Positions 7,748-49,637 of a DNA stretch of 64,000 bases are shown in pieces. How positions within the stretch are numbered: position 1 is the first letter of the stretch; each line of letters begins with the position of its first letter. Source of the stretch: an uncultured Phycisphaeraceae bacterium (GTDB taxonomy: Bacteria > Planctomycetota > Phycisphaerae > Phycisphaerales > Phycisphaeraceae); the NCBI GenBank assembly GCA_964427135.1, contig CAYRTH010000002.1:12732-76731 (forward strand), written 5' to 3'. Position numbers and translations under genes: made by a program. The notes beneath the pieces are model-generated. The model saw nothing but the letters and a program-made list of their open reading frames with translations. It was not told the DNA's origin and did not search any database.

Positions 7748-7801
7748 GTGGCCGAGTGGCCGAGTGGCCGAGTGGCCGAGTGGCCGAGTGGCCGAGTGGC
7801 C
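7748..7801. repeat. Tandem 8-mer array (GTGGCCGA) x about 6.75
   Basis: Read directly from the sequence. It starts 10 nt after the gspD stop codon. Confidence 0.9.
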
Positions 7802-7865
7802 AAATGAAATGTGATGCAGGATGTGAAGGTCATGATGCACAGGGCTGCAATGAAGGAAAAGAAAA

Positions 7866-7980
7866 CCGGGGCTAAAGCCCTCGGCGTCAATGAATGAAAA
7901 GACGATGACGGTTTGGCTGAAGCCCTCGGCGTCAATCAAGGGAATGACGGTGAAGGCCTAGGCCAAGCCCTCGGCGTCAA
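7866..7980. repeat. Three direct copies of AAGCCCTCGGCGTCAA at an exact 45-bp period (degenerate short hairpins of the TGACGCCG family)
   Basis: Copies start at 7875, 7920 and 7965. The inter-copy segments resemble each other (gaatgacgg...). Confidence 0.85.
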
Positions 7981-8041
7981 GCAGTGAAAGCACAATGTGT
8001 ACATGGGCTGATGATGGCGGCATCAACAGGTGATATTTGTG

Positions 8042-9631
8042 ATGAAGGCAGCGGCGGACAACTTGCAGTCGGAGACATCGACCCCGGCACCGTCAGTGTC
8101 AACGGAGGGGGTGGCGATGGACTTGGCGAAGCTGCAACCATCGGCGAGCTTTGTGCAGAAGGTGCCGATTCATTTTGCGCGGAGTAAAAAGGTGTTGGGG
8201 TTGGCCAGTGACAACGGGCATGTGCTGGTGGCGATGACGAACCCGAATGATGCGCAGACGCTGGATGTATTGCGTCGTCGGCTGGGGGGTGTGGTGAAGG
8301 TGGTGGCGGTGGATGAAAAAAACCTGCATGCAGCGATCAACGTGGCCTATGGGCAGCAGACAGGCGCGGCGCAGGCATTTGTGGAGAAATTGGATCGGCA
8401 GCAGGTGATGGAGGAAGTGCAGGGATTGGCGGCGCGGGAGGATTTGCTGAACGTGGCGGATCGTGCGCCGGTAATCAAACTGGTGAACCTGATTTTGTTT
8501 GAAGCGGTGCAGCAGGAGGCATCGGACATTCATGTTCAGCCGTATGAGGATAAGTTGATGGTTCGGCTGCGGATGGACGGGGTGTTGTTTGATGTGTTTA
8601 CGTTGCCGGGGGGAGTGAGAGAGGAAGTGACCAGTCGCGTGAAAGTGATGGGGAAGATGAACATTGCGGAAAAGCGGCTGCCGCAGGACGGACGGGCGAC
8701 GGTGCAGGTGGGGGATCGGGTGATTGATTTGCGGATATCGTCGGTGCCGGCGAGTCACGGGGAGCGGGTGGTGATTCGGTTGCTGGATAAAAGTGCGCGG
8801 TTGTACACGCTCAATGAGTTGGGGATGGATGCGCGGGCGCACGATCGGTTTGCGCGACTGATCGGGGTGGAACATGGGTTGATATTGGTGACCGGGCCGA
8901 CGGGTTCGGGAAAGTCAACGACGTTGTATGCGTCGCTGGGTCAGATCAATTCGAAGCAGCACAACATCATCACGCTGGAAGACCCGATCGAATATCAGTT
9001 GGATGGCATCAGCCAGATTCAGATCAGTGACAAAAAGGGGATGACGTTTGCCAGCGGGTTGAGGAGTGTGCTGCGGCAGGACCCGGACATTGTAATGATC
9101 GGGGAAATACGTGATCACGAGACGGCGGTGTTGGCGATTCAAGCGGCGCTGACGGGGCATTTGGTGTTCAGCACGTTGCATACCAATGATGCGGCGAGTG
9201 CGGTGACGAGGCTGCTGGATTTGGGGATTGAGCCGTATTTGGTGAGTAGTTCGCTGGTGGGGGTGCTGGCACAACGATTGGTGCGCAAAGTGTGTCGGCA
9301 ATGCGGGCAGAAGTATGAGCCGACGGAGGCGGAGTTGGCAGCGTTGCATTATCAGCCGGGGGCGGAGGAATTGGAAAAATATCGGAAAGGAATGGGTTGC
9401 AAGGCATGTCGCGGGACGGGGTATCACGGGCGGATCGGTTGTTTTGAATTGCTGATGATGGATGATCGAATTCGCGGGCTGGTGCAGGCACGGGAGACGG
9501 CCTCGGCGATCAACCGGGCGGCAGTGGAAGCGGGTATGCATCATTTGTCGGATGACGGGTTGGCGAAGGTGGCGAAGGGATTAACGACACTGGATGAAGT
9601 GATGCGAGTGTCGATGCGGGGGGTGATGTGA
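8042..9631 (+). CDS. gspE: Type II secretion ATPase GspE
   Basis: Contains Walker A GPTGSGKST, a T2SE N-domain and the tetracysteine motif CRQCGQ...CKACRGTG. The ATG at 8042 lies inside the ORF-track frame that starts at 8030. Confidence 0.9.
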   Translation: MKAAADNLQSETSTPAPSVSTEGVAMDLAKLQPSASFVQKVPIHFARSKKVLGLASDNGHVLVAMTNPNDAQTLDVLRRRLGGVVKVVAVDEKNLHAAINVAYGQQTGAAQAFVEKLDRQQVMEEVQGLAAREDLLNVADRAPVIKLVNLILFEAVQQEASDIHVQPYEDKLMVRLRMDGVLFDVFTLPGGVREEVTSRVKVMGKMNIAEKRLPQDGRATVQVGDRVIDLRISSVPASHGERVVIRLLDKSARLYTLNELGMDARAHDRFARLIGVEHGLILVTGPTGSGKSTTLYASLGQINSKQHNIITLEDPIEYQLDGISQIQISDKKGMTFASGLRSVLRQDPDIVMIGEIRDHETAVLAIQAALTGHLVFSTLHTNDAASAVTRLLDLGIEPYLVSSSLVGVLAQRLVRKVCRQCGQKYEPTEAELAALHYQPGAEELEKYRKGMGCKACRGTGYHGRIGCFELLMMDDRIRGLVQARETASAINRAAVEAGMHHLSDDGLAKVAKGLTTLDEVMRVSMRGVM

Positions 9632-27877: not shown

Positions 27878-28894
27878 TTAACAGCTTCGTTCCACCGCTG
27901 CCGCGATGCGCGCCAATGATTTCATCAGTTCCGTCAGCGCCCCGGGGGTGATCGATTGTGCCCCATCGGTCATGGCGTGTTCCGGGTCATCGTGTACCTC
28001 AATAATCAAACCATCCGCCCCAGCCGCCACCGCAGCCCGGCACATGTCCGCCACGAGCCTGGCGTGCCCTGTGCCCTGCGACGGGTCCACGATCACCGGC
28101 AAATGCGTGCGCTGATGCAGTTCCGGGATCGCTGACAACGACAACGTGTTGCGGGTGTGATCTTCAAATGTACGAATGCCCCGTTCACATAAAATCACAT
28201 TGGGGTTGCCTGCCGCGAGTATGTATTCCGCTGCCTGAAGGTATTCATCAATGGTCATGGCCATGCCGCGTTTGAGCAGCACCGGCTTGGGCTGTTTACC
28301 GCAGACTTCCAACAAGCGAAAGTTTTGCGCATTGCGTGTGCCGATTTGCAGACAGTCAGCATAACGGGCCACCAATTCGACATCGCCGGGGGTCACCACT
28401 TCCGTGATTACCGCTAATCCGGTCTGTGCGCGGGCCTCGGCCAGTATTTTCAAACCCTCTTCCGCCAGGCCTTGAAACGCATACGGGCTGGTGCGGGGTT
28501 TGAATGCTCCGCCGCGCAGTGCATGTGCCCCCGCAGCCTTCACATGCTCGGCTGCGTTCAACAATTGATCATGACTTTCGACACTGCAAGGCCCGGCCAC
28601 CACCGGCACATGGTTGCCCCCGAACACGCAATTCGTACTGACCTTCACCTGCGTCGGTTGTTTACGCATTTCCCTGGCCGCCATTTTGTACGGCGCCAGA
28701 ATGCGCATGACGCGATCGACGCCCGGGGCCTGTTCGAGTCGGTCCTTGTCTTTTTTGCGATCATCGCCGATGACCGCTACGACGGTCAGTTCCGTGCCGA
28801 CGATGGGGTGGTCCTTGAGGCCCATTTCCCGTACCAGTTCTTTCACGTGTTCGACTTGCATGGGGGTGGCATCCGGTCGCATCACGACGATCAT
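27878..28894 (-). CDS. aroF: 3-deoxy-7-phosphoheptulonate (DAHP) synthase, type I-beta with N-terminal ferredoxin-like regulatory domain
   Basis: 338 aa that aligns with my recollection of Thermotoga-type DAHPS (MIVVM...VIGDD..., [54 protein letters not shown]). AAGGAG lies 6 nt upstream of the ATG at 28894. The ORF-track N-terminal extension is rejected. Confidence 0.92.
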
Positions 28895-46058: not shown

Positions 46059-47714
46059 ATGGCCGAGTTGAAATTGCCCGACAAACTGCCCTCACCACAA
46101 GCGACCCTGCGTCGTTGGCTGGTGCAACCCGGCCAAGCGTTTGCCATGGGCGCAACCTTGGCGGAATTGGAATTGGAAGAGGCGCTGATTCACCTATTCG
46201 CCCAGCAGCCGGGCGCGGTGGGCAAGGCGTTGGTATCACCGGGGCAGACCGTCGCAGCCGGGGCAACCTTGGCGCTGCTTACCACCTCCGAGGGCGGGGG
46301 CACGGTGACTGCGAGCACGGGTCATACATCATCGGTCGTTCATCAACAAACCAATTCGTCAGCGGGGAAGGACAAACCCATGACTCAAAGCTCAGCCGGC
46401 AGTGCAACACCGATTTTGATGCCCCAGGCCGGGAACACGATGGAAGAAGGCCGGGTGCTTGCATGGAAAGTCAAAGAAGGCGACACCATCACGGTCGGCC
46501 AGGTGATTTGTGAAATTGAGACCGACAAGGCGACGATGGAATTTGAATCACCCATCGCTGGCAAGCTGGCCAAAATCGTGGTGCCCGAAGGCGAAGCCGC
46601 CCCGGTGAAAACGCCGATTGCGTTTGTCGGAGAGGGGGACATTTCGAATATCGGATTTCGGATTTCGAATTTGGAAAACAACCCGGCGGCTACCAATCAA
46701 TCAACCCCTGCAGCCGCGGACACACAAACAACCACTTCCGAAAATTCCAATTCCGAAATTCGAAATTCGAAATTCGATGGTCGTCCGAAAATATCACCTG
46801 CCGCTCGAGTCATCGCAGCACAACAAAACCTCGACCCGGCAGCGCTGGCAGCCGTTGGTAACGGTTCAGGGCCGGGCGGTCGGATATTGAGCAGCGATGT
46901 GGCAGGGTTGGCCAGTCGTTTGACCACGCAGGCCACAAGTCAGACACGCCCTCACCCTAATGTGAGCGCAGCGAGCACTCCTACTCTCCCGGAGGGAGAG
47001 GGGACCAAAGCCAAGCCCCCATCTGCGATCACCAGTACCCCCTGGGTCGATGGCATCACGCGCAGGCCGATGTCGAAAATGCGTCGGGCGATCGGTTTGA
47101 ATTTGCAACAATCCAAGCAGACCGTGCCGCATTTTTATGTGCGGCAGACCATTGATGCCCAGCCGTTGATCTCTTATCAAAAAGCCATGAAACAACTGGC
47201 CGGGTGTTCGATCAACGATTGCATTTTGTACCTGCTGGCCCGCACCATGAAATCGTTCCCCGCGTTTCGCAGTCGGCTGGAAGGTGACACGATCGTCGAA
47301 TACGCAGCCGTGAACCTGGGCGTGGCGGTGGGTATCGACGATGGGCTGGTCGTGCCGGTGCTGATGAATGCCGATACTCGATCATTGGCGGATTTATCGG
47401 CTGAAACCAAACGCATCATCGAAAGCGCCCGCAAAGGCAAGCTCGAAAACCTGGGCAAAACCAGTTTCACCGTCAGCAACCTGGGCATGTTCGGCATTGA
47501 GGAATTCGCAGCCATCATCAACCCCCCGGAAGCGGGCATATTGGCCGTGAGCGCCGCCCGTGAAGGCGTGCTGGTGAAGGGCGGAGCACTGCGGGCAGGG
47601 CAGGTGATGACGCTGACGATTTCCGCCGACCATCGCATCGTCGATGGCATGCTGGCGGCCCAGTTCATGGCGGCGTTCAAACTCAACCTCGAAAACCCGG
47701 GCAATGTGGCATGA
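46059..47714 (+). CDS. Dihydrolipoamide acyltransferase (E2) with one degenerate and one canonical lipoyl domain
   Basis: Lipoyl domain 2 carries EIETDKATMEF. A PSBD (SPAARVIAAQQNLDP...GPGGRILSSDV) and a catalytic domain (DHRIVDG) follow. Confidence 0.9.
   Translation: MAELKLPDKLPSPQATLRRWLVQPGQAFAMGATLAELELEEALIHLFAQQPGAVGKALVSPGQTVAAGATLALLTTSEGGGTVTASTGHTSSVVHQQTNSSAGKDKPMTQSSAGSATPILMPQAGNTMEEGRVLAWKVKEGDTITVGQVICEIETDKATMEFESPIAGKLAKIVVPEGEAAPVKTPIAFVGEGDISNIGFRISNLENNPAATNQSTPAAADTQTTTSENSNSEIRNSKFDGRPKISPAARVIAAQQNLDPAALAAVGNGSGPGGRILSSDVAGLASRLTTQATSQTRPHPNVSAASTPTLPEGEGTKAKPPSAITSTPWVDGITRRPMSKMRRAIGLNLQQSKQTVPHFYVRQTIDAQPLISYQKAMKQLAGCSINDCILYLLARTMKSFPAFRSRLEGDTIVEYAAVNLGVAVGIDDGLVVPVLMNADTRSLADLSAETKRIIESARKGKLENLGKTSFTVSNLGMFGIEEFAAIINPPEAGILAVSAAREGVLVKGGALRAGQVMTLTISADHRIVDGMLAAQFMAAFKLNLENPGNVA
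46641..46778. repeat. In-frame inverted-arm element in the E2 lipoyl-PSBD linker
   Basis: Arms are atttcgaatatcggatttcggatttcgaatttgg and ccaattccgaaattcgaaattcgaaattcgat. Translated as ISNIGFRISNLENNPAATNQ...SENSNSEIRNSKFD. Confidence 0.75.
46945..47003. repeat. In-frame copy of the CACGCCCTCACCCT..CTCCCGGAGGGAGAGGG hairpin in the E2 PSBD-catalytic linker
   Basis: The intergenic copy is at 49601-49637. The coding copy carries an internal insertion of about 27 nt and is translated as RPHPNVSAASTPTLPEGEG. Confidence 0.65.
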
Positions 47715-47724
47715 GGTTTTGAAA

Positions 47725-47986
47725 TTTCACCGCAGAGAACGCAGAGAACGCAGAGAAAACAATAAAAAGTACTTCAAGCCAAGATTTGGTGAGATCCATA
47801 CGAAGTAATCGAATCGGAAGACGCCCCAAAAGGATGAAGAAGCACAGATTATGAATAATATTACTCAACGAGGTATAGCAGAGATTCATTTCTATGCTTT
47901 GAACATGACTAATCATCCATGATTGCCCTTGCCATTGATATGAAATTGTTTTTGTCTCTGCGATCTCTGCGATCTCTGCGGTGAAT
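47725..47986. repeat. MITE-like element with GCAGAGAA-word inverted arms and an AT-rich core
   Basis: The left arm tttcaccgcagagaacgcagagaacgcagaga and the right arm tctctgcgatctctgcgatctctgcggtgaat show 2 mismatches in about 30 nt. Lies between E2 and E3. Confidence 0.8.
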
Positions 47987-48024
47987 CTCGGCTCTGTCCT
48001 GCTGCAAAATCAAGAAGCGTGTAA

Positions 48025-49534: not shown

Positions 49535-49637
49535 ACCAAGCCGGGAACGAGGCTGACAAGCCGAGGGCCCGGGTATGTGGGTCGATGAATCAACATTAAA
49601 CCACGCCCTCACCCTCTCCCGGAGGGAGAGGGAACCC
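49535..49637. repeat. ACCAAGCCGGGAACGAG...GGGCCCGGGTAT core plus CCCTCTCCC-GGA-GGGAGAGGG hairpin
   Basis: Read directly. The families are shared with 55111-55161 and 46945-47003. Confidence 0.8.

Follow-up and report, generated by a model that had tools for sequence, protein, structure and literature searches.

The E2 acyltransferase gene of an uncultured Phycisphaeraceae bacterium carries dispersed repeats, read in frame, in two of the linkers that connect the domains of its product. The gene lies in a 64,000-nt stretch of contig CAYRTH010000002.1 (the window), and the positions given below are those of the window. Taken jointly, the sequence comparisons are best explained if this E2 absorbed two dispersed repeat families into its disordered linkers, in frame as linker peptide, a reading that we hold to be very probable. 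Linker 1 would have gained forward and reverse arrays of a heptamer, and linker 2 a long-loop repeat of the BoxC type, and both would be read as part of the E2 linker peptide. Such repeats probably persist in E2 because its linkers need only be flexible tethers and because the repeat words bring no in-frame stop codon. The initial annotation of the window, made from the letters alone, had placed repeat elements in frame in both linkers; this is borne out by the open reading frame, the pair of arms in linker 1, and matches to the repeat families. The features concerned are as follows.

46059 to 47714, + strand: E2 acyltransferase gene, 551 amino acids (open reading frame)
46641 to 46677, + strand: left arm of the linker 1 element, forward heptamer array (ATTTCGA/ATTTCGG), translated ISNIGFRISNLE (inverted-repeat pair; family membership)
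46678 to 46733, + strand: interior of the linker 1 element, unique, translated NNPAATNQSTPAAADTQT (genome comparison)
46734 to 46778, + strand: right arm, reverse heptamer array (YCGAAAT), translated TSENSNSEIRNSKFD (inverted-repeat pair; family membership)
46941 to 47005, + strand: long-loop BoxC/TMECO-type repeat in linker 2, translated QTRPHPNVSAASTPTLPEGEGT (copy listing; alignment to family)
46949 to 46957, + strand: block 1 of the repeat, CCCTCACCC (pattern match; consensus from PMC4666352)
46958 to 46983, + strand: 26-nt subfamily module TAATGTGAGCGCAGCGAGCACTCCTA in place of the canonical 3-nt loop (copy counts)
46984 to 47003, + strand: hairpin CTCTCCC-GGA-GGGAGAG(GGG), which is blocks 2 and 3
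49601 to 49637, + strand: compressed intergenic member of the same family, in the spacer between the E3 gene and the gene after it

The Repeats Lie in Linkers Predicted to Be Disordered

The genome under study (G000) is a 3.29-Mb draft of 239 contigs with 56% G+C. It was compared with 40 relatives, among them a congeneric genome (G001) and a third genome of the genus (G002), which is 70% complete. The E2 protein consists of a degenerate lipoyl-like domain, a lipoyl domain, an E3-binding domain (PSBD), and a catalytic domain, with Pfam matches to Biotin_lipoyl (residues 119–188), E3_binding (residues 243–281), and 2-oxoacid_dh (residues 334–549). It contains the motif IETDKA with the lipoyl lysine as well as SADHRIVDG, which conforms to DHRxxDG, and is in these respects a member of the 2-oxoacid dehydrogenase E2 family. 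Residues 1–77 (46059–46289) have a lipoyl-like fold without the lipoyl-lysine, and read ELEEA where the second domain reads ETDKA. The lysine is absent from the first domain across the whole E2 orthologue group (consensus LVELExEDAL).

Linker 1 comprises approximately residues 189–242 and linker 2 approximately residues 282–333. An AlphaFold2 prediction from a 15-sequence alignment gives a predicted local distance difference test (pLDDT) score below 50 in exactly three segments of E2, residues 78–114, 197–240, and 290–329, and both repeat elements fall within these predicted disordered tethers. The gene is open and in frame in G000, in G001, and in a third species represented by the protein P0003, and the net differences between G000 and G001 are 27 nt in linker 1 and 18 nt in linker 2. 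The placement in low-pLDDT segments and the intact frame in three species despite differences in length agree with the earlier proposal that flexible E2 linkers tolerate insertions. The first linker of the G001 protein also carries in-frame repeats, in the form of an (ST)n run and four tandem TTGGM units, and therefore repeats appear to collect in all three E2 linkers of the genus. The predicted tryptic peptides of the repeat-bearing linkers are ISNLENNPAATNQSTPAAADTQTTTSENSNSEIR and PHPNVSAASTPTLPEGEGTK. In an Rfam scan of the whole 64-kb window, no family reached its gathering score.

The Linker 2 Repeat Resembles a Long-loop Derivative of BoxC

The copy in linker 2 (46941–47005) has the DNA sequence CAGACACGCCCTCACCCTAATGTGAGCGCAGCGAGCACTCCTACTCTCCCGGAGGGAGAGGGGAC. 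Over 59–64 of its 65 nt it is 96.7–98.3% identical to about 30 other copies in G000 (E 1e-23 to 6e-26), so that the membership of linker 2 in a hairpin family, as proposed initially, holds up, and the similarity to the other copies is significant in a computed alignment. The core of the hairpin, CTCCCGGAGGGAGAGGG, has 146 exact occurrences in G000, and 221 when one mismatch is allowed. The repeat subfamilies in this genome have a common 5' box (GCCCTCACCC) and a common 3' hairpin (CTCTCCC-GGA-GGGAGAGGGG) and differ in between. The common short form is CCCTCACCC-N3-CCCTCTCCC-N3-GGGAGAGGG, which is the complement of the published TMECO consensus CCCTCNCCC N3-6 GGGNGAGGG N3 GGGNGAGGG (PMC4666352). 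The G000 family comprises 90 strict three-block matches and 101 long-loop derivatives, and in about half of the copies loop 1 is replaced by a module of 10–45 nt.

In G000, about 32 copies, the E2 copy among them, form a subfamily that has the module AATGTGAGCG(C/A)AGCGA(G/A)CACTCCTA. Copies of the 26-nt module number about 32 in G000 and 18 in G001, and the module was not found in G002, G003, or G038. The coding copy had been described as carrying an internal insertion of about 27 nt; this is correct relative to the copy at 49601–49637, but the inserted segment is the module of a whole subfamily in two genomes and not a private change. The intergenic copy itself is present, but it is not intact as had been supposed: it is compressed, its first two blocks overlap, and it fails the strict three-block pattern.

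When the E2 copy is set against the blocks CCCTCNCCC / CCCTCNCCC / GGGNGAGGG, the first (CCCTCACCC) and third (GGGAGAGGG) are intact, and the second, aCTCTCCC, agrees at 7 of 9 positions. The copy breaks the BoxC loop rule (3 nt, 3–6 nt), with 26 nt separating blocks 1 and 2. The E2 copy of G001 satisfies the strict motif with the loops TAG and GGA. A 48-nt query of the short form matches 5409 of 5426 complete E. coli genomes at a median of 17 places per genome, and the best E. coli matches listed have 88% identity over 42 nt, a similarity sufficient for BoxC. The intergenic location of BoxC does not extend to this family, in which the E2 copy and about 45 others lie within open frames. On these comparisons we assign the linker 2 family to the BoxC/PIT/TMECO type, with the E2 copy itself as a long-loop derivative. 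The family is patchy: pattern matches number 218 in G000, 263 in G001, 6 in G002, 28 in G003, 76 in G038, and 25 in G022, and 29 of the 41 genomes searched are without it. Both the long and the short subfamilies are present in G000 and in G001.

Paired Heptamer Arrays Bracket Linker 1

The inverted arms of linker 1 (46641–46672 and 46742–46773) are 32 nt each, 88% complementary, and 69 nt apart. Their units are the heptamers ATTTCGA/ATTTCGG and the complement of these, and the arms match other heptamer arrays in G000 at 97% over 33–34 nt (E 4e-10, a significant similarity as well). The 74-nt interior of the pair has no second copy in G000, and therefore the segment of about 138 nt is not one repeated unit. 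The inverted heptamer arms that the initial annotation had described thus remain, the single 138-nt repeated element does not, and the translation given for it agrees with the open reading frame. A reading of this element as a miniature inverted-repeat transposable element was rejected: the arms are repetitive, the interior is unique and species-specific, and no target-site duplication was seen at lineage-specific insertions.

Heptamer arrays form 141 forward clusters and 146 reverse clusters in G000. Within 300 nt, 29 pairs have a forward array first and a reverse array second, and 0 have the opposite order. The interiors of these pairs are variable, and the linker 1 arrays bracket the protein linker as similar pairs bracket many intergenic spacers in G000. 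The forward-then-reverse rule stays the same under reverse complementation. Across the 41 genomes, the array pattern has 420 matches in G000, 527 in G001, 72 in G011, and at most 3 in each other genome.

By inspection, the ATTTCGA/G units are free of stop codons in all six frames, and several other word families (CGCAGAGAA, and the CACGAAG words in the window) seem to be stop-free too, which would allow such words to survive at any landing site within a gene. Another word family, CACCGCAGAGAACGCAGAGAACGCAGAG, stands with its inverted counterpart at either end of the spacer between the E2 and E3 genes, at 47728–47759 and approximately 47946–47988; of these arrays, the right-hand one alone is conserved in G001.

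E2 linkers are compositionally simple and G000 is a draft of many contigs, features that would suit a chance or low-complexity resemblance, or an assembly chimera induced by repeats. The probability of either is negligible in our estimate, given the extent and identity of the linker 2 matches, the equal gene order and elements of an independently assembled congener, and the reversed-pattern controls, which gave 0 matches in the 41 genomes.

Repeat Cores Are Conserved between Two Species While Flanks Diverge

The E2 orthologue in G001 is the sole close one among the 40 relatives, with 82% identity over residues 112–551, and the best match to E2 in G002 has only 37% identity. A search of 5.8 billion proteins found as close relatives only the G001 protein and P0003 (65% identity), which derives from a metagenome-assembled genome. 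The close homologues bear Phycisphaerales/Phycisphaerae labels.

The G001 gene has both elements at positions matching those of G000. Its linker 1 reads ISDFGFRISDLE...SENSKFD...SIRNSKS, with an extra 27-nt module inserted in the region of the right arm, and its linker 2 reads QTRPHPSPLPEGEGK, which is the short form. The linker 2 copies of the two genomes start at the same base (CAGACACGCCC) and both end in GGGGA. In P0003, linker 1 has a stub of two heptamer units (ATTTCGAATGTCGAAT) and then, where G000 has its unique interior, a BoxC-like copy in reverse orientation, and linker 2 has no element. The E2 linkers of G003, P0036, P0040, and P0011 have no such elements and consist of ordinary Ala/Pro/Ser-rich sequence. 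Relatives lacking the repeat families thus have linkers without these sequences, rather than the identical linkers that would have spoken against the initial annotation.

Because an element occupies linker 2 in G000 and G001 and none is found there in P0003, linker 2 would have been invaded after the split from P0003 and before the divergence of G000 and G001. By the same comparison, linker 1 appears to have been a repeat sink for longer than linker 2. The locus had been taken as a record of element activity inside a coding region; the insertions support this, but both evidently predate the split of G000 and G001 and hence do not represent recent activity; both would also be younger than the separation from the P0003 lineage and more remote relatives. 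No single deletion would convert the long form into the short one, and judging from the aligned linkers, the linker 2 copy has changed subfamily between the two genomes.

The nucleotide identities between the E2 genes of G000 and G001, which are one species pair, are distributed as follows.

5' box of the BoxC-type copy: 19/19
Hairpin of the BoxC-type copy (46984 to 47005): 21/22
Left arm of linker 1: 33/37
Right arm of linker 1 (46734 to 46775): 34/42
Interior of linker 1: 22/56
5' flank in linker 2: 19/39
3' flank in linker 2: 28/52
Lipoyl and catalytic domains: 87%
PSBD: 76%

The repeat cores are approximately 95–100% identical between the species, and the adjacent linker DNA 39–54%. At third codon positions, the repeat cores agree at 36/39, compared with 223/327 for the folded domains and 16/50 for the linker flanks and interior (Fisher tests, p = 7e-4 and 3e-9). 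At the nucleotide level, the repeat cores therefore appear to have remained nearly unchanged while the unique DNA around them diverged freely. The repeats in the four spacers around E2 are mostly unconserved between G000 and G001, and the copy at 49601 is absent from the G001 spacer. In-gene copies may thus outlast their intergenic siblings and stay at consensus, and the E2 locus can be regarded as a natural experiment, with two families, two linkers, orthologues with and without the elements, and one site that holds different subfamilies in the two species.

We read this pattern as one old insertion that has since evolved in concert with the other members of the family, the main rival being independent insertions at one site. 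We infer that the conservation of the cores and the switch of subfamily stem from short-tract gene conversion against the approximately 200 other copies and not from selection on the peptide.

In-frame Copies Are Found in Many Housekeeping Genes

In G000, 37 open frames contain about 45 BoxC-type copies at a depth of at least 80 codons, and roughly a fifth of the BoxC-type copies are in frame within genes. Among 18 such frames that were tested, 15 contain Pfam domains: Dus, histidine kinase, AcrB, Mur ligase, and Mfd; HrpB, GcvP, LigA, class III aminotransferase, and HrpA; GTPase, CarB, O-antigen ligase, FtsX permease, and UvrA. The coding copies use either orientation and four or more reading frames. 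In-frame heptamer arrays are found in MutS, DnaE, SMC, an SNF2 helicase, a class I aminoacyl-tRNA synthetase, and PQQ propeller proteins. At least 20 Pfam-supported genes have in-frame copies, and E2, which is among them, is not special in this respect.

The copies in GcvP, Mfd, and Mur ligase, as well as one in LigA and one in HrpB, are present in G000 and lacking in G001, and others are shared by the two genomes; therefore insertion into genes would have continued after the G000/G001 split. The shared copies in MutS, HrpB, and LigA have the same pattern of core-over-flank conservation as those in E2. The G000-specific insertions occupy segments that are already variable, and are often composites of several families, which makes their boundaries unreadable.

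MutS (G000:C155) has two full in-frame forward-reverse heptamer pairs, one of them just before the Walker A motif, and both are also present in G001, with near-identical arms and diverged interiors. A valyl-tRNA synthetase frame of 1331 codons (G000:C165:506–3793; PPPNVT...HLGHA, KMSKS) holds an in-frame IS200/RAYT-like Y1 domain at C165:2006–2293, together with a BoxC-type copy and octamer word arrays.

The identity of the cores could also mean that the insertions are young, the two species having acquired their E2 copies independently at insertion hot spots (or at a pre-existing copy). In keeping with this, the copies are near-consensus in both species and belong to different subfamilies, long in G000 and short in G001; no simple deletion turns the long form into the short form, and lineage-specific insertions are known in other G000 genes. 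The element boundaries, however, agree to the nucleotide within a linker whose flanks are only 49–54% identical, the coincidence would have to be repeated at both E2 linkers, at two MutS sites, in HrpB, and in LigA, and neither a target motif nor a duplication is visible. We consider independent acquisition improbable.

The repeats might instead be kept for a function, whether by arm pairing or a GC-rich hairpin that slows ribosomes, as a DNA binding site, or as a peptide that tunes the linker. Their nucleotide conservation does exceed that of synonymous sites in the folded domains, and the linker 1 arms, placed exactly at the ends of the linker and able to form a 28-bp pairing, have a strong potential to fold: the RNA of 46636–46785 has a predicted energy of -48.2 kcal/mol, compared with -31.0 ± 3.6 kcal/mol for shuffled sequences (z = -4.8). 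The linker 2 RNA, on the other hand, folds no better than shuffled sequence (z = -1.7), and published tests of BoxC revealed neither promoter nor terminator activity (PMC4666352). Both families occur in either orientation and in several frames, in unrelated genes and in spacers; relatives do without the elements, and one shared copy has decayed without harm. Retention for function is on these grounds less probable still than independent acquisition. Under the absorption of repeats into permissive linkers, in-frame copies would be a possible source of new linker and loop sequence in proteins.

The DUF559 Nuclease Genes Examined Are Flanked by Inverted BoxC-type Repeats

Seven genes for DUF559 (Vsr-like nuclease) proteins were examined in five Phycisphaerae genomes (G000, G001, G003, G011, and G038). 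Both DUF559 genes of G000 have BoxC-type copies on both sides, approximately 30–100 nt from the DUF559 domain. The copies are inverted, with the CCCTCACCC block facing the gene on each side. At one core per 15 kb, the probability of finding all four flanks in G000 occupied by chance is approximately 1e-8. Four of the five genes in the other genomes are flanked likewise, and the fifth is flanked by the variant repeat CCCTCCCCC. The flanked genes resemble small mobile units with repeat ends. The two loci in G000, with their flanking repeats, are as follows.

C1:28340 to 28880: DUF559 locus, with the DUF559 protein at 28400 to 28717
C124:7653 to 8183: DUF559 locus, with the DUF559 protein at 7762 to 8076

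Since inverted copies flank every DUF559 gene examined, a small mobile unit coding for the DUF559 nuclease probably spreads or maintains the BoxC-type family. This gives a testable hypothesis for the movement or maintenance of BoxC repeats. In a literature search, no paper was found that links DUF559 to BoxC or describes such repeats in Planctomycetes. The DUF559 gene of E. coli K-12, ycjD, has a BoxC copy approximately 160 nt past its 3' end and a partial BoxC-like hairpin over its stop codon; on its 5' side there is no BoxC copy.

A more specific proposal, which we regard as doubtful, is that BoxC repeats are the solo ends of the DUF559-nuclease mobile unit and that the nuclease still acts on intact copies, even those in essential genes. 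In-frame copies would then be kept at consensus, and their subfamilies exchanged as at the E2 site, through breakage and repair from other copies, whereas copies once damaged would escape the nuclease and turn into ordinary linker sequence. If it holds, the proposal would supply a mechanism for the BoxC of E. coli, unexplained for 30 years, and would describe a steady path by which selfish DNA becomes new protein sequence.

RAYT/REPIN-type mobilization was rejected. There are eight Y1-transposase-like matches in G000, but the two best Y1 genes have neither repeat family within 2.5 kb, and their scores are below the curated RAYT cut-off.

Several observations weigh against the absorption of repeats into E2 as we have described it, with its concerted evolution and its candidate mobilizer. 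The E2 insertions are common to two genomes only, and the ancestral state, short or long, is not polarizable. A second HrpB copy has decayed in G001, which means that homogenization is not universal. At the G000-specific insertions in GcvP, Mfd, Mur ligase, LigA, and HrpB, neither target-site duplications nor clean empty sites were seen. G022 has 25 BoxC-type copies with no DUF559 match, and no candidate enzyme was found for the heptamer arrays.

Comparison with Known Repeat Systems

Rickettsia palindromic elements (RPEs; Ogata et al. 2000, 2002) are palindromes that are found in frame in many genes (summarized in PMC10969869). Compared by description only, the repeats studied here are alike in that short palindromic families occur in frame in many unrelated housekeeping genes, which remain intact and gain extra peptide at permissive sites. 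In contrast to the RPEs, the host is a free-living member of the Planctomycetota and not an obligate intracellular alphaproteobacterium, and the elements are smaller, consisting of a 39–65-nt triple-block repeat and heptamer arrays compared with roughly 100–150 bp. They also occur in both orientations and several frames, whereas RPEs have one conserved open reading frame. By analogy, the behavior can be called RPE-like, in a new phylum. Palindromic repeats that lie in frame within housekeeping genes have been regarded as peculiar to Rickettsia, and they appear here in a free-living planctomycete.

The intergenic heptamer tandem repeats described earlier include the TAACTGA arrays of Beggiatoaceae (PMC4679880) and the heptameric repeats of Xanthomonas and Nostoc (PMC4692102). 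As in those systems, the arrays of G000 are short, consist of 7-nt units, and lie at hundreds of places in the genome, mostly between genes. They differ in the sequence of the unit, in the forward-then-reverse pairs that bracket a spacer or a linker, and in their additional occurrence in frame. The STRR sequences of cyanobacteria are further intergenic heptamer tandem repeats.

The BoxC-type repeats share with the REP/REPIN system short GC-rich imperfect palindromes in hundreds of copies, and Y1-transposase-like genes are present in G000. The gene that is consistently flanked by the BoxC-type repeat encodes a DUF559 nuclease, however, and not a RAYT.

The BoxC/PIT/TMECO motif, described as an intrastrand triplex in E. 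coli and further Proteobacteria (Holder et al. 2015), has been found in 262 proteobacterial genomes, with a maximum of 143 copies per genome, and is always intergenic in MG1655 (PMC4666352). The short form in G000 has the same three 9-nt blocks and the same loop lengths as the TMECO consensus, and both families are patchy among close relatives, with unstable intergenic loci carrying the repeat. The present family differs in that approximately 190–220 copies are found per genome in a different phylum, exceeding the proteobacterial maximum, and in that roughly a fifth of them are in frame in genes. It is nevertheless a repeat family that E. coli also carries, where the role of BoxC has never been explained.

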